From an uncultured Acidobacteriota bacterium (lineage in GTDB: Bacteria > Acidobacteriota > Thermoanaerobaculia > UBA5066 > Gp7-AA6): a DNA stretch of 64,000 bases. The stretch is from NCBI GenBank assembly GCA_963710945.1, contig CAVQCH010000007.1:97183-161182 (forward strand). The letters run 5' to 3'. Below the pieces are notes generated by a model. It was not told the origin of the DNA, made no database searches, and worked only from the letters and a program-made list of their open reading frames with translations. Positions 359-55,660 of this stretch are shown piece after piece (positions within the stretch are counted from its first letter, which is position 1; every line of letters begins with the position of its first letter). Made by a program: the position numbers and the translations under genes.

Positions 359-856
359 ATGATCGCGGCCCGCGCCCGTGCGTTGCTAGATCGCTGGGAA
401 CGGCTCTGGGAAGTGCCGGGGCTGGCACGCTCCATCGATGTTGTTCCGAATCCGTTGCTACGGTCGACCTTGGGCAGATGCTTACCTTCTAGGCGACGTA
501 TCGAACTTCATCCCAGCGTCCTGAAGTCGCGGGGCCCGGCATTAGCTCAGATCCTCTGCCACGAGGCAGCCCATTTCGTCCTTCATGAGGCGATGGGTAG
601 AAAGGTGCGCCCACATGGTCAAGAATGGGCCAGACTTGTGCGAGCCGCTGGGTTCGAACCGACCACTAAATTGCGCAGCTGCATACTGAAGCCGAACCGA
701 CCGAAGCGAGCTGGACGCTATCGGTACGAGCACCGCTGCCTGATCTGTCACGCAGCCCGCTATGCCAATCGGCCGATTCGGAATTGGCGGTGCGCGAGTT
801 GTATGACTGCCGGGCTCTCGGGTGCAATGCGGATCTTGAAGAGCTCAGAAGCGTGA
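359..856 (+). CDS. SprT-like zinc metalloprotease (SprT/Wss1/Spartan-type), 165 aa
   Basis: Track ORF 359..856. HExxH motif (C-HEAAH-FVLHE, nt ~559-573), then PHGQEW, then a C-terminal four-Cys ribbon (CLICH ... CASC). This order and size fit bacterial SprT. Stop TGA 854-856 overlaps GTG 853 of the next gene. Confidence 0.7.
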   Translation: MIAARARALLDRWERLWEVPGLARSIDVVPNPLLRSTLGRCLPSRRRIELHPSVLKSRGPALAQILCHEAAHFVLHEAMGRKVRPHGQEWARLVRAAGFEPTTKLRSCILKPNRPKRAGRYRYEHRCLICHAARYANRPIRNWRCASCMTAGLSGAMRILKSSEA

Positions 857-3800
857 GCGCCGCGGGGCCCTGCCCTTTCTGCCAGATCGGGCCTGATCGG
901 ATCTTCCACACGGGCAGGCTCGCACTCGGGATTTGGGATGGTTTTCCTGTTGCTCCGGGCCACGCTCTGCTGGTGCCTAGGCGTCATGTGATGGGCTGGG
1001 CTGACGCAACGTCCCAGGAGCGCCTTGAGTTAACCGAAGCGATCTCGATTGCGTTCGACGCAATCAGACAGCGTTTCCCGGCCGACGGATTCAATGTCGG
1101 TATCAACCTGGGCGAGGCTGCTGGTCAGTCTGTTTCACACCTGCACGTTCATGTCATTCCACGCAGAGTGGGTGATCACTCAAACCCGAGAGGTGGCGTC
1201 CGCCACGTAATCCCGGCAAAGGGCGACTACTCGACTCCGGCCGAAGCTCCAAAGCGAGCAGACGAAGTTCGTTACCTTGTGCCGGGCGAAGGCGACCCGC
1301 TCTTACCCCATCTAGTTCACGAACTCGGAAAGGCAACGGCCGTGGACATTGCTGTCGCCTTCGTTCTAGAAAACGGCATCGCCCGCCTCGAAGAGCACTT
1401 TCGTGACGTCCTCAACCGAGGCGGGAGGATTCGCTTCCTGACCGGCAACTATCTCGACGTGACTGAGCCTCGCGCGTTGAGGAGGCTTCTCGACTTGGAA
1501 GGGAACATCGACCGAAGAATCTTCGAAACCAAGTCGCCAGAGCCGAAGTACGCCGATCGACCGTTCAAGACCTCCTTTCACCCAAAGGCTTACGTGACAA
1601 GAACAGACGGGGATGGCGTCGCCTTCATCGGTAGCTCGAACCTAAGCCAGAGCGCGCTGGTCAATGGGATCGAATGGAACTACCGCGTCGTGTCCTCCCG
1701 CGATGCGGCGGGTTTCCGCGACGTGCTCGATGGGTTCGAACGGCTATTCGTCCATCCAGCGACTCGCCCACTTACGGATGATTGGATCGACGTCTATGAA
1801 CGCGAGCGGAAGACCCCCCAGCCTGTAGCCGCTGATGCAATCGAAATCGAGACTCCTCCACCCCCTCCCGAGCCTCACGAGATCCAGCAAGAAGCCCTGA
1901 GGGCGCTTCAAGAGACGCGGGAGGCGGGGAATACGGCGGGCCTTGTGGTCCTCGCCACCGGTCTGGGAAAGACCTGGCTTTCCGCCTTCGATAGCTCGGA
2001 GTACCGCCGTGTTCTATTCGTCGCACATCGGGAGGAGATTCTCGGCCAAGCAAGAAAGACGTTTCGGAGCATCCGCCCGACAGCACGTTTGGGCTCCTTC
2101 TCCGGGGAAGAGAAGGACCTCGAGGCCGATGTCCTATTCGCTTCCATCCAGACGCTCGGGAAGCAGCGTCATCTCGACAGCTTCGCGCCGGATTCGTTCG
2201 ACTACGTGGTCGTAGACGAGTTCCATCACGCTGCAGCGTCAACCTATCGGCGCCTGATCGATTACTTCTGCCCAAACTTTCTGCTGGGCCTAACCGCTAC
2301 ACCAGAGCGCACTGACGGAGGCGATCTTCTTGGGTTGTGCCAGGAGAACATGGTGTATCGATGCGACCTCGCCGAGGCGATCACGCGCGGTCACCTATCG
2401 CCGTTCCACTACTTTGGAGTCCCGGACGAGGTTGACTACCGAAATATCCCGTGGCGTAGCTCTCGGTTCGATGAAGAAGCGCTCACGGAAGCCGTGGCGA
2501 CGCAGACTCGTGCTAAGAATGCCCTCGACCAGTACCGCCAGCGGGGTGGCACGAGAACCCTCGGGTTCTGTGTGTCGCAGCGTCACGCCGATTTCATGGC
2601 CGATTTCTTTCTCAAGGAAGGAATTCGTGCTGTTGCCGTCCACGCGGGCAGCACAAGCGCACCTCGAGCCGACTCACTGGAAAGACTCGAGGCCGGAACG
2701 CTGGACGTGGTGTTCGCAGTGGACATGTTCAACGAGGGCGTAGATCTTCCTGACCTCGATACGGTGATGATGCTTCGCCCTACGGAGTCTCGGATCCTTT
2801 GGATTCAGCAACTGGGAAGGGGGCTTCGAAAGGCGGAAGGGAAGTCGCACCTCACTGTCATCGATTACATCGGCAACCACAGAACCTTCCTTCTCAAACC
2901 GCAAACGCTCTTCCAGCTGCCGAGCGGCGATTCGGCGATTCGAGACGCTCTAGACCGGCTTCAAGCAGGGACCATTGAGCTGCCGCCGGGTTGTGAGGTC
3001 ACCTACGATCTAAAGGCGATTGAAGTCCTCAGAGCACTCCTTCGGATCCCCAAGGCTGAGCTAGACGCGCTCCGCCGCTTCTATGAGGACTTCCGCGAAT
3101 TGCATGGCGTTCGGCCTACAGCCACCGAAGCGTTTCACGAGGGCTACAACCCGCGCTCGGCGAGAAAGAGCCACGGATCTTGGCTCAGGTTCGTCGAAGC
3201 CATGGGGGACATGACAGACACGCAACGAACGGCTATAGGCGAAGCTGGAGCTTTCTTAGATTCCCTCGAAACGACCGAAATGACAAAGAGTTTCAAGATA
3301 TTGGTGCTCCTGGCAATGCTGAACGGCGACCATTTTCCCGGCGAAATTTCAGTCTCGGAATTGACGAAAGGCGTTCGAACCCTGGCTGTCAGGACGGAGA
3401 CGCTTCGGGGTGAATTCGGTGAGTCCCTCGAGAATGACGCCATGCTTGCAGACTTGCTGGAGAGGAACCCAATTAACGCCTGGGTGGGAGGAAAAGGGAC
3501 CAGCGGTGTCCCCTATTTCGAGTACCGCGAGGGCATCTTCCGGACCACTGTGACTGCTTCCGGAAGATCAAGGTCGGCACTGCAAGAGCTGACCCGTGAG
3601 GTCGCCGACTGGCGACTTGTAGAGTACCTCGACCGCGCACGAACGCCCGCTCCAGGCGACACTCGCTTTGAGTGTGCTGTGAGCCACGCGAACGGTCGAC
3701 CACTCGTCTTTCTACCGAATCGGGCAGACGTACCGGGAATCCCTGAGGGGTGGGTTGATGTAACCGTGGATGGGGACCTCTATCAAGCCAATTTCGTCAA

Positions 3801-4428
3801 GGTGGCTGTAAACATTCTGAGACGGACCGGTTCGGAGCAAAACGAACTCGGCTCGGTCCTCCGCGGGTGGTTTGGCCCTGACGCCGGATTACCGGGAACG
3901 AGTCATCGTGTTGCCTTCGAAAAGGGCAACAAGGGCTTAAGACTGATCCCCCTGGGCCGCCGAGAAGGAGTGCTTCAGCTCTGGAGGAGCTATTCGAGGG
4001 AGGAAATCCCAAAGCTCTTTGGCCTCGACTACTCGCCCTTTCTTTGGCAGCAGGGATTTATTCCTCAGGGCAAGCACATGTTTCTACTCGTAACCCTGGA
4101 CAAGGGTAGTCATGCGGAGCAGTTTCAGTACAAGGACCGCTTCCTGAGCGCCGACCGCTTCCAGTGGCAGAGCCAGAATCGCACGGCTCAAGAGAGCAAG
4201 CATGGGCGGCAGATCCGAGATCATCAAGCACTTGGAATTGCATCCCACCTTTTCGTGCGAGCTCGAAGCAAAAGCCCTCAGGGCACGGCCAGCCCATTCG
4301 TCTATTGCGGAGACGTCAAGTTCGTACGTTGGGAGGGGAATAAGCCGATAACTGTCGAATGGCGGCTGCCTGAGTCGGTTCCGGAAAGGTGGCAGGCGGC
4401 GTTTATCGTCCCAGAGACAAATGGATAG
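853..4428 (+). CDS. HIT - PLD(HKD) nuclease - SF2 helicase - unassigned region - DUF3427 fusion protein; SauUSI-like Type IV (modification-dependent) restriction core with an extra N-terminal HIT domain
   Basis: One uninterrupted ORF (track 784..4428). I prefer GTG 853, which gives a GTGA stop/start overlap with the SprT-like gene; ATG 784 is the alternative. Motifs read directly: HIT CPFCQI ... SHLHVHVIPRR (~1138-1164); a single HKD, FHPKAYV...GSSNLS (~1576-1650); helicase motif I LATGLGKTW (~1954-1980), II VVVDEFHH (~2209-2232), III LGLTATPER, VI QQLGRGLRK (~2806-2832). The C-terminal block ...HLFVRARS...FVYCGDVKFV... (~3970-4425) fits my recollection of DUF3427. Confidence 0.8.
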   Translation: MSAAGPCPFCQIGPDRIFHTGRLALGIWDGFPVAPGHALLVPRRHVMGWADATSQERLELTEAISIAFDAIRQRFPADGFNVGINLGEAAGQSVSHLHVHVIPRRVGDHSNPRGGVRHVIPAKGDYSTPAEAPKRADEVRYLVPGEGDPLLPHLVHELGKATAVDIAVAFVLENGIARLEEHFRDVLNRGGRIRFLTGNYLDVTEPRALRRLLDLEGNIDRRIFETKSPEPKYADRPFKTSFHPKAYVTRTDGDGVAFIGSSNLSQSALVNGIEWNYRVVSSRDAAGFRDVLDGFERLFVHPATRPLTDDWIDVYERERKTPQPVAADAIEIETPPPPPEPHEIQQEALRALQETREAGNTAGLVVLATGLGKTWLSAFDSSEYRRVLFVAHREEILGQARKTFRSIRPTARLGSFSGEEKDLEADVLFASIQTLGKQRHLDSFAPDSFDYVVVDEFHHAAASTYRRLIDYFCPNFLLGLTATPERTDGGDLLGLCQENMVYRCDLAEAITRGHLSPFHYFGVPDEVDYRNIPWRSSRFDEEALTEAVATQTRAKNALDQYRQRGGTRTLGFCVSQRHADFMADFFLKEGIRAVAVHAGSTSAPRADSLERLEAGTLDVVFAVDMFNEGVDLPDLDTVMMLRPTESRILWIQQLGRGLRKAEGKSHLTVIDYIGNHRTFLLKPQTLFQLPSGDSAIRDALDRLQAGTIELPPGCEVTYDLKAIEVLRALLRIPKAELDALRRFYEDFRELHGVRPTATEAFHEGYNPRSARKSHGSWLRFVEAMGDMTDTQRTAIGEAGAFLDSLETTEMTKSFKILVLLAMLNGDHFPGEISVSELTKGVRTLAVRTETLRGEFGESLENDAMLADLLERNPINAWVGGKGTSGVPYFEYREGIFRTTVTASGRSRSALQELTREVADWRLVEYLDRARTPAPGDTRFECAVSHANGRPLVFLPNRADVPGIPEGWVDVTVDGDLYQANFVKVAVNILRRTGSEQNELGSVLRGWFGPDAGLPGTSHRVAFEKGNKGLRLIPLGRREGVLQLWRSYSREEIPKLFGLDYSPFLWQQGFIPQGKHMFLLVTLDKGSHAEQFQYKDRFLSADRFQWQSQNRTAQESKHGRQIRDHQALGIASHLFVRARSKSPQGTASPFVYCGDVKFVRWEGNKPITVEWRLPESVPERWQAAFIVPETNG

Positions 4429-4670: not shown

Positions 4671-5282
4671 ATGAGAAGCCCCGTAACCCTGGGCGTCCTC
4701 CTCTGCGCCATCTCACTTCCCGGTTGTACGAGGTCTGATCCTCAACCAGCCGCCGGGGCTCCGACGCCTGAGCCCAAGACCCTCTACGTCGTCGTCACCG
4801 CGACACGGGCGCCTCGTGAAGCCGAGCCGACTTGGACTCCTGATCCCGAGCTAATGCTCATAACGCCGACAGCCAATCCAACGGCGCCACCGCCCACGCC
4901 GCGACCGACAGTAGATATTTCCTCGATTCCAAGCCTCGAGCGCCCGATGGGGCCGCCCGCCGATGCCAGGTCGCGCAGTGATCAGCTTGCCGGATGCATG
5001 AACTATTCGGCCGAGCCAAACCCCGGCGGTCAGTGGATCCGAATCAAGGTTACAGGCCGGAATTCTTGCGGCCAGCCAGTGACCGCTGACGAGTCATGGT
5101 TCGAAATTGCGGCAATGGACTTGAACGGCGCGCAAGTTGGGCACGAAGTCGGACGGTTCCAGAACGTAATCCCGCCGCAGGGCCAAGCTGAGACGTACAT
5201 AGCTGTCGATTGCCCGAAGGCGCCATGCCGCTACAGTGCTGCTGCATGGTGGGCCGCGGGTGGCGGACGGCGACCGCAATAG
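4671..5282 (+). CDS. hypothetical lipoprotein with Pro/Thr-rich linker
   Basis: Track ORF. N-terminal signal with lipobox (LLCAISLPG-C), then a Pro/Thr/Ala-rich linker and a Cys-containing C-terminal domain. No domain recognised. Confidence 0.5.
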   Translation: MRSPVTLGVLLCAISLPGCTRSDPQPAAGAPTPEPKTLYVVVTATRAPREAEPTWTPDPELMLITPTANPTAPPPTPRPTVDISSIPSLERPMGPPADARSRSDQLAGCMNYSAEPNPGGQWIRIKVTGRNSCGQPVTADESWFEIAAMDLNGAQVGHEVGRFQNVIPPQGQAETYIAVDCPKAPCRYSAAAWWAAGGGRRPQ

Positions 5283-5471
5283 CTCTCCACCCTAATTCCT
5301 CCCCGCCCTAGAGGGCACGGCGGAAGCGGGCGCGGAGGCGGCCCGGTAGGCTTCCGCGAAGGCCTTGGTCAGTCCTAATTTCCTGACTTCAAAGCCGCAC
5401 GCGGCTTCGTCGCGCTCCCGCCCGCCCTCCCGTACAATGCCGCCCGCCTCCTACCGAAAGGACCGCACCCG

Positions 5472-9155: not shown

Positions 9156-11021
9156 CTACTTCGGTTTCTTCTTCTTCGCCTTCTTGGCCTTGGCGCGCTG
9201 AGCCTCGTCGGCGAAGGGATCCGGGTCCGCGGCCGCCTTCTTGCTCCAGGGCATCGCCGCGGCGGCGGCGGTCGCCCCCGCCGTCGGAAAGAACATCAGC
9301 CTGCGGTTGTTCTTGTAGGTCCCGGGCTTGAAGTTGGGCGCGATCCAGTCGCCCGAGGGATCGAGCTCGAGCGGGTTCTTCTTGTCGCCCTTGCTCGCGA
9401 ACTTGTTCAGGACGTCGCGGGTGTAGAAGTGCCGGAAGATCCGGTCGAACTCCGTCAGGTAGATGTCGGCAACCCGTTTGTCGCCCCGGATGAGCAGCAT
9501 GTTTTCGTCGTTGCTCACGAGCGAGTTCGTGGAGAAGTTGGCCGACCCGGAGCAGACGAGCGGATCGTCCGTGAGCGGGTCGATCAGGAGTACCTTGGCG
9601 TGCATGAAGAAGACGTGGCCCTTGTTCGTGGCGCGGGCCAGTTCTTCGGCGAGAAACCACTTGTCGAGGTTGGACTTCGGGATCGGCGCGACCTTGGCCC
9701 CTCCGGGCCCGCTCTTGTACTTGATCATGCTCTTGCCGAGAATCGCGCCGTTCGAGAACACGAGGCGCCCCTTGTTCTGGAACTCCGCGTCTTTGACTTC
9801 CTTCGTCGGGATGTCCTCCAGGATGACCACGCGCACGGAATCGAGCGTCTTTCCGAGCGCCTTGAGCAGTGTCGGCGCCACATTGAAGGGGATCGTCATC
9901 GCGGCCATGAACGCCGTGTCGTCGATTCGCTGGCCGTACCAGTCGAGCATGTTGTCGGCGATTCGCGGCGAGTAGAACTCGACGATCGACGACTTCGCGA
10001 TCGCGTTGGGCGGGTTGGGCGTGAGCGCGACCGCGTTCGTGACCGCCTTCGAGTGCACCGGGTCGAGGCTCAGCTCCTTCCAGTAGTCGAGGTACTTCTT
10101 CGCGACTCCGTCGTCGGTGACGAGATGCCCCACGTTGGTCTGCCCGAAGAGGCCCGTGTCGGTGAAGTTGGTCGAGCCGGTCCAGACGGCCTTCGCCTTC
10201 CCGCCGACGAGCTTGACGATGAACTTGTTGTGCGGGATCGGCGTGCGCGTCCGCTGGAAGAGGATCTGTTTGCCCCCGTGGGTCTTGGTGAGACCGGCCT
10301 TGCCGATGGCCTTCAGGTTCGCGTCGTTCGGCTTCTTGGTGAAGTGGTAGACGATCTGGACGTCGACGCCGCGGTCGAGCGCGCGCTTCAGCGCGTCGAG
10401 GACGGGCCCATACGTGAACTCGTACGCGCAGACACGAAGCCCCTGGCCGCTCTTCGCTCCGTTGATGTAGTCCATCAGGGCCTCTTCGAGGCCGCGGGAG
10501 AGGTACCGGAGCTCGGCGTCGACGACCTTGCCCTCGGCGTCGACCTGGTTGACGGCCGCCGCGACGACCTTCTTGTTCTTGAAGTCCCGGGCGAGCTCCT
10601 GGCTTGCGATCGCGCCGCGGTTGAACCAGATGCCGTGCCCTCCCTCGTTTTCCTTGTGCGTCTTGATCGTGAACTGCACCGAGTGCTTTTCGTTCAGCGA
10701 GCCGACGGTCCCGTAGAGGGCCATGACCGTGATGGCGTACTCAGTGTCCGGGTCGGCGGAATAGTCGGACCAGAGGAAGCTCTGGAGCGGGTGGACGCGT
10801 GTGGAGTACTTGGCGCCTTTCACGGGATGGGGGACGAGGCTCGGGAAGTACTTGATGCCGGTCAGGAACTCCGGCGCGGCGCCCCCGACGACGCCGCGCT
10901 TGATCGCGAAGCCGTGGAGGCCGTTGAGCTCGGCCGGGTCGAGATCGAACGCCATCAACACGACGCGCGTTCCCGAGATGGCCTTGACGCTGAGGGGCCC
11001 CTGGGTCCTCGTCACCCGCAT
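9156..11021 (-). CDS. phospholipase D superfamily protein with two HKD motifs, N-terminal beta-sandwich-like region and Lys-rich C-terminal tail
   Basis: 621-aa ORF. HKD 1: PHNKFIV...WTGSTNFT. HKD 2: MHAKVLLID...CSGSANFS. C-terminus ...QRAKAKKAKKKKPK. GGGAGG lies 8 nt upstream of ATG 11021. Composition is visibly less GC-rich than the neighbours. Confidence 0.75.
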   Translation of the reverse strand: MRVTRTQGPLSVKAISGTRVVLMAFDLDPAELNGLHGFAIKRGVVGGAAPEFLTGIKYFPSLVPHPVKGAKYSTRVHPLQSFLWSDYSADPDTEYAITVMALYGTVGSLNEKHSVQFTIKTHKENEGGHGIWFNRGAIASQELARDFKNKKVVAAAVNQVDAEGKVVDAELRYLSRGLEEALMDYINGAKSGQGLRVCAYEFTYGPVLDALKRALDRGVDVQIVYHFTKKPNDANLKAIGKAGLTKTHGGKQILFQRTRTPIPHNKFIVKLVGGKAKAVWTGSTNFTDTGLFGQTNVGHLVTDDGVAKKYLDYWKELSLDPVHSKAVTNAVALTPNPPNAIAKSSIVEFYSPRIADNMLDWYGQRIDDTAFMAAMTIPFNVAPTLLKALGKTLDSVRVVILEDIPTKEVKDAEFQNKGRLVFSNGAILGKSMIKYKSGPGGAKVAPIPKSNLDKWFLAEELARATNKGHVFFMHAKVLLIDPLTDDPLVCSGSANFSTNSLVSNDENMLLIRGDKRVADIYLTEFDRIFRHFYTRDVLNKFASKGDKKNPLELDPSGDWIAPNFKPGTYKNNRRLMFFPTAGATAAAAAMPWSKKAAADPDPFADEAQRAKAKKAKKKKPK

Positions 11022-55299: not shown

Positions 55300-55660
55300 T
55301 GGTGGAGGCGGCGGGAGTTGAACCCGCGTCCGGAAGCGCTACGGGAGAGGCCACTCCATGCTCAGCCTCTTCTTGGTTCTCGCCCCGCCGCCTCGAGAAG
55401 AGGCAAAACGGCGGAAGGGCAACCCCGAATTTGTTTCGCCGCTCCGTCCGGGGGACCGGAGCGGCTACACCCGCATTTCGCGACGTCGGCCGAGGCGCGG
55501 CGGGTGCGCTACACGGCAAACGAGGCTACTTAATTAAGCAGCCAGAGCGAAGTTGCTGTTGTTCGCAGCTACTGTTTTTCACCCTGCTTTTACGAGGAGG
55601 GGTGAGACCTCGGCATGCAACCTCTCGCGCAATCGTCCCCGTCGAAGCCGTTTCGCCCCC
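55300..55660 (-). ncRNA. ssrA: tmRNA (SsrA)
   Basis: Minus strand starts GGGGGCGAAACGGCTTCGACGGGG and ends ...GGGTTCAACTCCCGCCGCCTCCACCA. The internal tag frame GCT GCG AAC AAC AGC AAC TTC GCT CTG GCT GCT TAA gives (A)ANNSNFALAA. About 361 nt. Confidence 0.9.

Follow-up and report, generated by a model that had tools for sequence, protein, structure and literature searches.

Near the start of a 64,000-nucleotide stretch of DNA from an uncultured Acidobacteriota bacterium (positions 97,183 to 161,182 of contig CAVQCH010000007.1, assembly GCA_963710945.1; this whole stretch is called the window here), two overlapping genes encode an SprT-like zinc metalloprotease and a 1191-amino-acid protein that begins with a HIT domain and whose remainder is very likely a SauUSI-family type IV restriction endonuclease (Table 1). 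The stretch was not found in any public sequencing run. An earlier note, made from the letters of the window, had described a HIT domain fused to a nuclease-helicase in a locus that combines the SprT, PLD, and HIT families. Pfam searches recovered all three families at the locus. The fusion of HIT to a nuclease-helicase also stands, with the qualification that the nuclease-helicase is specifically a type IV endonuclease of the SauUSI family with an SRA-like reader domain.

Table 1. Features of the window, with positions counted from its first letter
Feature	Position	Strand	Residues and motifs	Basis
SprT-like zinc metalloprotease	359..856	+	165 amino acids; C-terminal zinc ribbon	PF10263, E 1.6e-14; stop overlaps next start
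Single gene, HIT-PLD-SF2 ATPase-coupler-DUF3427/SRA-like	853..4428	+	1191 amino acids; GTG start	Pfam, PADLOC, PDB, Foldseek
HIT domain	853..1233	+	1-127; CxxC (C7, C10), H37, nucleotide loop G83-N85...G91-Q92, triad, P103-R104 after triad	Pfam, PDB sequence matches, alignments, models, stand-alone clade members
Histidine triad	1138..1152	+	H96-L-H98-V-H100	Read from sequence; HxHxH intact
Clade-specific tail of HIT			G107-D108...P112-R-G-G-V-R-H-V-I-P121...Y126	
Linker between HIT and PLD	1234..1272	+	~128-140	pLDDT <50 in both models
PLD-family nuclease	1273..1812	+	~141-320; one HxK (H243, K245), GSSN (260-263)	Aligns to SauUSI nuclease domain
SF2 helicase-like ATPase	1870..2910	+	~340-686; Walker A GLGKT (370-374), DEFHH (455-459), TATPER (481-486), QQxGRGLR (652-659)	ResIII, E 1.6e-37; Helicase_C, E 7e-14
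Helical coupler	2920..3966	+	~690-1038	Mostly helical in model
DUF3427/SRA-like target-recognition domain	3967..4386	+	1039-1178	PF11907, E 5e-23; aligns to 7CLG 803-914
PLDc_2 protein	9156-11021	-	621 residues; two PLDc_2 matches	
tmRNA gene	55300-55660	-	Tag peptide ANNSNFALAA	Rfam, 184 bits

The closest homologues considered here are the 120 clusters listed from a search of 5.8 billion proteins (56 to 100% identity). Residue conservation was read in alignments of 31 and of 77 homologues, and gene context was read in 82 loci (L001 to L082), comprising 80 loci of the SauUSI-like core found by a scan with one genome per species, the window's own contig, and one 89% orthologue. The closest genome relatives in that scan are 51 to 62% identical and belong to the Acidobacteriota, Myxococcota, Planctomycetota, and Proteobacteria.

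The HIT domain is confirmed far beyond chance, with a match to PF01230 at E 1.6e-19 for the whole protein and 5.2e-21 for residues 1 to 146. An AlphaFold model of the HIT region (residues 1 to 140, input of 77 sequences) has a predicted local distance difference test (pLDDT) score above 90 over residues 11 to 110; the full-length model of 1191 residues has a pLDDT of 77.9. The motif CPFCQI (C7..C10) and the string GQSVSHLHVHVIPRR, both quoted in the earlier note, are found in the translation of the open reading frame (ORF). By analogy with H96 of Fhit, the nucleophile is expected to be H98. After the triad comes a tail with the consensus G-D-x3-P-R-G-G-V-R-x-V-I-P-x-K-x-x-Y, whose conservation in the alignments equals that of the active site. 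In the same HIT clade, stand-alone members end right after this tail, so the domain boundary lies at about residue 127 (nucleotide 1233), and the interval 853-1250 that the earlier note had given for a complete HIT domain is accurate. The GTG at 853 shares bases with the stop codon of the SprT ORF (GTGA), and 91 of the 120 homologue N termini align to it, so it is the likely start of the gene. The depositor's gene call on the identical ENA contig starts at M47, which cuts the HIT domain, and it misses the upstream SprT ORF. In all, the depositors' gene calls miss the SprT ORF in four contigs (L081, L082, L093, and L094).

The large protein is assigned with high confidence to the SauUSI family, every sequence-level hallmark of these enzymes being present. 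The top PADLOC model was the type IV methyl-directed restriction enzyme (mREase_IV; E 6.4e-118), and the best solved structure by sequence was SauUSI itself (7CLG; E 3.9e-99), to which residues 140 to 686 and 1041 to 1155 could be aligned. A Foldseek search with the full-length model also placed 7CLG first (E 8e-46 over ~1060 columns), and RadD, XPB, and HsdR matched the generic SF2 motor only. Although the Pfam PLDc_2 match of the nuclease domain was weak (E 7e-5), H243, K245, G260, S261, S262, and N263 are invariant in the 31 homologues, in which the SF2 motifs are invariant or nearly so. SauUSI depends on ATP; its SRA-like domain reads 5-methylcytosine (5mC) or 5-hydroxymethylcytosine, after which the enzyme translocates and a PLD dimer shreds the DNA (PMC7913695; PMC3141236). 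The window protein shares the domain order of SauUSI and ScoA3I (PLD nuclease, SF2 ATPase, helical coupler, DUF3427/SRA-like reader). HxK, GSxN, the helicase motifs, and both the Asp and the Trp of the pocket are conserved, and its coupler region has the position of the SauUSI coupler domain (PMC7913695). The earlier note had likened the PLD domain to Tdp1, which was not upheld; it is predicted to be a restriction nuclease of the Nuc/BfiI/SauUSI type.

The flipped-base pocket of SauUSI is formed by D858, W868, Y831 (which touches the methyl group), M829, F841, and I842 (PMC7913695). Mapped through the 7CLG alignment, the equivalents of D858 and W868 are D1095 and W1105, both of which are kept in almost all relatives, while Y831 corresponds to F1069, M829 to Q1067, F841 to L1079, and I842 to V1080. 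The window protein thus differs from SauUSI in having Phe in place of Tyr at this position. It also has Arg250 in place of the acidic residue of the SauUSI motif H-x-K-x4-E, a residue that is not conserved. SauUSI furthermore lacks both a HIT domain and an SprT partner, and the accessory linked to it is a separate NUDIX gene (PMC3141236).

The earlier note had judged that the CxFC start of the HIT domain resembled the Hint branch, a judgment that our comparisons do not support. The best PDB sequence matches are the mycobacterial Ap4A phosphorylases (6AF2, 3ANO, and 3WO5; E 5e-16 to 4e-15), followed by archaeal and mycobacterial HIT proteins and Fhit (~1e-11 to 1e-12), with Hint structures weaker (E 1e-7 to 1e-4). 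In NCBIfam, the top model was 'ATP adenylyltransferase' with 65 bits against a cut-off of 290, a score so far under the cut-off that equivalence is not claimed. Foldseek searches with the HIT-only model ranked Fhit first (7P8P and 3FIT; root mean square deviation [rmsd] of 1.1 to 1.3 Å over ~100 residues, 31 to 32% identity, E 6e-10) and phosphorylases of the Rv2613c type second (37 to 42% identity), with a TM score of 0.55 for Hint against 0.69 for the Fhit group. The triad is followed by PR..GD, not the GG of Hint, in 120 of the 120 closest clusters listed, and the N-terminal CxxC is not diagnostic, being absent from some active homologues. By these rankings of sequence and model matches, rather than by a tree of all HIT branches, the HIT domain belongs to the Fhit/Ap4A-phosphorylase branch, and it does not group with generic Hint proteins, whose lower ranks in all three comparisons rule out that placement. 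Aprataxin, GalT, and DcpS were absent from the PDB sequence matches at E<=0.01, aprataxin was absent from the top 50 Foldseek matches of the HIT-only model, and a placement with any of the three was rejected, the only such signal being a weak Pfam overlap with DcpS_C. Doubt about the aprataxin analogy, already voiced in the earlier note, was therefore well placed. Aprataxin has a HIT fold and acts in DNA transactions, but its HIT is followed by a C2H2 zinc finger, and no Cys/His zinc-finger pattern was seen in the window sequence after the triad. Fhit and the Ap4A phosphorylases (Rv2613c; 3ANO, 3WO5, and 6AF2), with 31 to 42% identity and an rmsd of 1.1 to 2.3 Å, share the HxHxHxxPR..GD signature with the window HIT but are free-standing small-molecule enzymes, whereas the window HIT is fused to a nuclease and has its own PRGGVRxVIPxKxxY tail.

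The fusion is conserved. PF01230 and DUF3427 occur together in all 120 of the closest clusters listed, so the HIT domain is not freely lost among close homologues, and the histidine triad, whose conservation the earlier note had proposed to check, is present in all 120 and invariant in the alignments of 31 and 77 homologues. Also invariant or nearly invariant in these alignments are W28, D29, H37, H45, N85, G91, Q92, H96, H98, H100, P103, R104, D108, G114, G115, and Y126. Among the 82 sampled loci, 37 have a HIT N terminus, and these are found in Acidobacteriota, Myxococcota, Planctomycetota, Verrucomicrobiota, Proteobacteria, and Actinomycetes. In a neighbor-joining tree of core residues 140 to 690, HIT lineages are basal and paraphyletic, so the domain is judged to be old and inherited with the core rather than freely gained and lost. 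It is likely, judging from the conserved residues, that the HIT domain is catalytically active and functionally required. The family has been seen before by machine: some of the listed clusters carry the JGI annotation 'helicase / HKD nuclease / Ap4A HIT hydrolase', and Myxococcaceae are the source of one nr entry. Because automatic annotations already show the fusion, the sequence family itself is no novelty, but the recognition of the fusion as a conserved variant, the accessory-swap pattern described below, and the SprT partnership appear to be new, and full-text searches found no literature linking HIT with SauUSI, DUF3427, type IV restriction, or PLD-helicases.

Where HIT is absent, another accessory is generally present. 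In 18 loci (L041, L047, L051, L052, and others), a class I S-adenosylmethionine (SAM)-dependent methyltransferase-like domain (Methyltransf_25/23, TehB-like) is fused at the N terminus instead of HIT, and in 10 further loci without a fused domain, the same methyltransferase is encoded by a separate gene directly upstream. The upstream gene, noted in L022 to L025, L046, L048, and others, also occurs in 4 of 10 loci with a degenerate HIT remnant, and no methyltransferase was found in any of the 37 HIT loci. Among the 31 non-HIT, nondegenerate loci with an intact 5' side, 28 have the methyltransferase, two have a NUDIX (in one of them fused to a methyltransferase), and one (L078) has neither. HIT and methyltransferase accessories are thus mutually exclusive in the sampled family, with a nearly perfectly complementary distribution. 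The NudG/MutT-like NUDIX lies upstream in L054 (5376-5978) and is fused to the methyltransferase in L043 (4973-5962); in L003 (NUDIX at 5063-5464), the order is NUDIX, SprT, HIT-type gene. Its best NCBIfam model was 'pyrimidine (d)NTP diphosphatase', which scored 129 bits (cut-off, 156). Proteins in which the methyltransferase is joined to HIT exist, as do proteins that join it to a NUDIX. At least 60 SauUSI-like genes have been linked to a MutT/NUDIX gene by Xu et al. (2011) (PMC3141236), and 5-methyl-dCTP is given as the preferred substrate of NudG in a table cited in PMC5158307. The NUDIX gene of Staphylococcus aureus (SAUSA300_2432, NudG-like) would be a comparable nucleotide pyrophosphohydrolase-type accessory of the same enzyme family, with relatives in L003, L043, and L054, but it has another fold, is a separate gene, co-occurs with HIT in L003, and is dispensable, since its deletion did not relieve restriction in S. 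aureus (Monk et al.; PMC3312211).

Across the 82 loci, the residue equivalent to Y831 covaries with accessory type when kinship is ignored, being Phe with HIT, His with methyltransferase, and Ile or Met with degenerate HIT. The pocket Asp and Trp are kept throughout all accessory types.

Proteases are a second recurring theme and are specific to the HIT-type enzymes. An SprT gene lies directly upstream in 14 of the 37 HIT loci, usually with a stop/start overlap, and in none of the non-HIT loci among the 82 sampled; in the core tree, loci with SprT turn up at scattered points of the main HIT clade. The window SprT, as read from its motifs, is intact and translationally coupled to the HIT-type gene. 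Its HExxH motif (H68, E69, and H72), H86, and the ribbon residues H125, C127, C130, C145, and C148 are invariant in 13 orthologues, and its scores fall under the NCBIfam equivalog cut-offs. A profile search gave 907 SprT relatives, four of which were sampled for context: one precedes an intact HIT-type gene, one a truncated HIT-PLD, and one a frameshifted copy, and the fourth is a solitary gene with a transposase, a PIN toxin module, and AbiE as neighbors. Two HIT-type homologues, P0021 (L093 2309-6616) and P0049 (L094 2313-6494), carry a C-terminal LexA/UmuD-like Peptidase_S24 domain and are nonetheless preceded by an SprT ORF, which the gene calls miss. A fusion of SprT to HIT was considered and rejected, as N-terminal extensions before HIT gave no SprT match; the long homologues have either start-site extensions or the C-terminal S24 domain.

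The HIT clade also occurs outside this enzyme. A HIT-only search of 1.84 billion representatives gave 95 matches at E<=1e-30, many of which are fragments of the same fusion and others of which have a different architecture. P0131 and P0157 combine HIT with an unknown domain and HNH_4, P0175 has HIT followed by a helix-turn-helix region, and P0208, in which a methyltransferase is joined to HIT, directly follows an HNH_4 gene in mobile-element surroundings. In P0250, an uncharacterized N-terminal region of ~290 residues precedes HIT, and the gene adjoins one with DNA-SBD_ScoMcrA and HNH_2, a reader-nuclease of the ScoMcrA kind. On the Polaromonas plasmid pPNAP03, the gene for a 133-residue HIT protein bearing the tail precedes one for an HNH endonuclease. 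The coordinates noted for such HNH-associated HIT loci are L090 5992-7459, L088 4873-7085, and L089 1518-3684, the last with an SBD-HNH of the ScoMcrA type. From the HNH and ScoMcrA associations, the clade is a recurrent companion of restriction-type nucleases of differing catalytic folds.

The same clade is found in phage nucleotide-metabolism neighborhoods. The stand-alone gp4 of Streptomyces phage phiSASD1 (L092 4037-4369) lies beside dNMP kinase and AANH-like genes. Another stand-alone HIT (L091 5995-6357) was seen in a phage-like plasmid region with a dCMP deaminase a few genes downstream. In PADLOC, ThsC of type II Thoeris matches the window HIT at E 6e-9, and ThsC was the sole HIT protein that full-text searches found described in a defense system. 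Like the window HIT, ThsC is a HIT protein attached to a defense system, but Thoeris is an NAD-derived signaling system in which ThsC has been proposed to handle the signaling nucleotide (PMC8565338), and no signaling component of the Thoeris kind is evident at the window locus.

The setting of the two genes differs from that of the rest of the window. Over positions 359 to 4428 their G+C content is 58.5 to 60%, against 67.6% for the rest of the window, where the lowest other 3.5-kb stretch has 62.6%; at third codon positions it is 0.63 to 0.65, against 0.90 for the nearby deaD. This atypical composition points to horizontal acquisition. The flanking genes are ordinary (a peptidase S41 fragment, a PD40-amidohydrolase, a two-domain PLDc_2 protein, and DeaD), and in the 89% orthologue the region has different inserted neighbors, toxin-antitoxin pairs included. 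Neighbors of other homologues include AbiE, transposases, a GmrSD-like DUF262 gene, a second PLD-helicase paralogue, and Dcm-Vsr pairs, and broken copies of the HIT-type gene are common, L063 being one. In L008 (2-1257) and L014 (4248-5971), a Dcm-like C5 methyltransferase and a Vsr-like gene, identified from motifs by eye, stand directly upstream of HIT-type homologues on the same strand. A scan of part of the ORFs between 1 and 18.5 kb of the window revealed no DNA methyltransferase, and neither a sigma-70-like promoter nor a convincing terminator was found around the two genes. The PLDc_2 gene of the window was considered as a further component and set aside as probably unrelated, as it lies 4.7 kb away past housekeeping-type genes and is not conserved beside homologues.

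We think it probable that the two overlapping genes form a small, horizontally acquired defense island in which the HIT domain serves as an accessory to the restriction enzyme. In the proposed mechanism, the SRA-like C-terminal domain would flip out a modified cytosine-type base, as its homology with SauUSI suggests, base recognition would switch on ATP hydrolysis and translocation by the SF2 motor, and the PLD nuclease dimer would cut the foreign DNA. The HIT domain would be a catalytically competent Fhit-like nucleotide hydrolase or transferase that assists restriction rather than DNA repair. Its target might be a nucleotide-linked small substrate, such as a modified (d)NTP, a dinucleoside polyphosphate, or a similar NMP-X, and its effect might be to clean up or deny modified nucleotides or to switch off a nucleotide that interferes with restriction, a role analogous to that of the NUDIX partner of SauUSI. 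The comparative patterns make such a small-nucleotide role (pool hygiene or denial) a tentative proposal, which follows from the finding that HIT fills the slot held elsewhere by a TehB-like methyltransferase or a NudG-like NUDIX. SprT might degrade proteins met on the target DNA or regulate the restriction enzyme.

Several observations weigh against this picture of an active nucleotide-handling accessory. No HIT enzyme is known to hydrolyze plain dNTPs. As L003 has both a NUDIX and HIT, the two are not strict substitutes, and since a methyltransferase cannot 'remove' a nucleotide in the manner of a hydrolase, a role common to the accessories is not obvious. In L005, the nucleophilic His is replaced, yet the domain and SprT are retained, and an alphaproteobacterial clade of 10 loci (L022 to L025, L037, L038, L040, L042, L045, and L049) carries at the N terminus of the core gene a catalytically dead HIT remnant of 70 to 110 residues, in which the CxxC and first helix are kept and the nucleotide loop and triad are gone (hhalign against the HIT profile, 96.7%, E 3e-10). 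The remnant and L005 together argue that part of the value of HIT is structural. The strongly conserved tail residues 112 to 127 are modeled with low confidence in both models. The target specificity of the reader, finally, is suggested by just two conserved pocket residues, and Dcm-like and Vsr-like neighbors are odd for an enzyme expected to cut 5mC, which suggests another sequence context or target.

HIT proteins are dimers, and the active site of the PLD nuclease is formed by a dimer, so the HIT pair probably stabilizes or gates the nuclease, and bracing the PLD dimer could accompany catalysis by HIT; a stabilizing or gating role would explain the retention of the dead remnant. A stronger version of this idea, in which HIT is mainly regulatory or structural, an obligate dimer that holds or gates the PLD nuclease dimer just downstream, strikes us as unlikely, though less so than the two readings considered below. 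Such a domain may bind and slowly turn over a nucleotide signal (Ap4A or ATP) and thus license cuts only under infection or stress. It would fit with the dimerization of SauUSI through its PLD domains to form one active site (PMC7913695), with a whole clade that retains a HIT remnant without nucleotide loop or triad, and with L005, which keeps the domain and SprT despite its lost nucleophile, and the alternative methyltransferase-like domain could in this case be a SAM-binding sensor. The near invariance of the triad, H37, N85, and Q92 in the HIT-type family is, on the other hand, what catalysis predicts, and the same HIT clade occurs as a separate small protein beside HNH nucleases, where it can be no covalent dimerization tag.

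The partnership with SprT raises the question of whether the two proteins act together on DNA ends or DNA-protein links. HIT might remove 5'-adenylates or hydrolyze ligase-AMP so that cut foreign DNA is not resealed, it might resolve stalled phosphohistidine PLD-DNA intermediates, or SprT might digest proteins on phage DNA and HIT then remove the remaining nucleotide-peptide link. Eukaryotic SprT/Spartan proteases are DNA dependent, HIT chemistry of the Hint kind cleaves P-N bonds, and HIT, NUDIX, and methyltransferases are classic families of 5'-end and cap processing. The strict linkage of SprT to HIT-type genes and the LexA-like S24 protease domain added in some homologues also agree with this reading, as does the covalent His-phosphate intermediate of PLD nucleases (PMC7913695). 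We nevertheless give it a small chance, since the HIT domain has no aprataxin-like zinc finger or DNA-binding element and no aprataxin match by sequence at E<=0.01 or among the top 50 by fold, its clade pairs also with HNH nucleases, which form no covalent intermediate, and 23 of the 37 HIT loci lack SprT. The earlier note had suggested, besides defense, a helicase-driven machine for DNA adducts or crosslinks. In its housekeeping form, such a machine would clear adducts or DNA-protein crosslinks from the cell's own genome, with SprT, PLD, and HIT as Spartan-, Tdp1-, and aprataxin-like parts. The three families do co-occur, RadD and XPB are the next-best helicase matches, and the S24 fusions hint at a RecA link, but the RadD and XPB matches are limited to the generic SF2 core, the match to a restriction enzyme spans the entire core, its SRA-like modified-base reader included, and the HIT domain is Fhit-like, not aprataxin-like. 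A patchy distribution over many phyla, atypical G+C content, mobile or defense neighbors, and frequent pseudogenized copies speak against it as well, and nothing but the SprT linkage and the S24 fusions favors it; we consider it highly improbable. The alternative of defense, which the earlier note had also raised, is well supported by the SauUSI-type core, the SRA-like reader, the low G+C content, the mobile and defense neighbors, and the decayed copies, which together argue for defense rather than housekeeping crosslink repair.

Type IV enzymes are usually treated as self-contained machines that read the modification and then cut. In the sampled SauUSI relatives, nearly every member comes with one enzyme of a small-molecule type (HIT, TehB-like methyltransferase, or NUDIX), and this near-universal pattern argues that the systems need an additional accessory activity. 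A bolder and rather improbable extension is that HIT, the methyltransferase or NUDIX accessories, and SprT/S24 constitute a second layer of type IV restriction, with chemistry beyond the phosphodiester cut. If that were true, the layer might take off or degrade proteins that shield or cap phage DNA and clear its 5' ends of nucleotide-linked groups, blocking resealing, or alternatively might destroy modified nucleotide precursors needed by the phage, and the type of accessory would be matched to the DNA modification recognized by the reader domain. The accessory role could reveal how self-restriction is avoided after modified DNA is shredded, how phages are starved of modified nucleotides, or how repair of cut DNA is prevented, and solving it would give a function to a widespread bacterial clade of Fhit-like HIT proteins and to a bacterial SprT subfamily.

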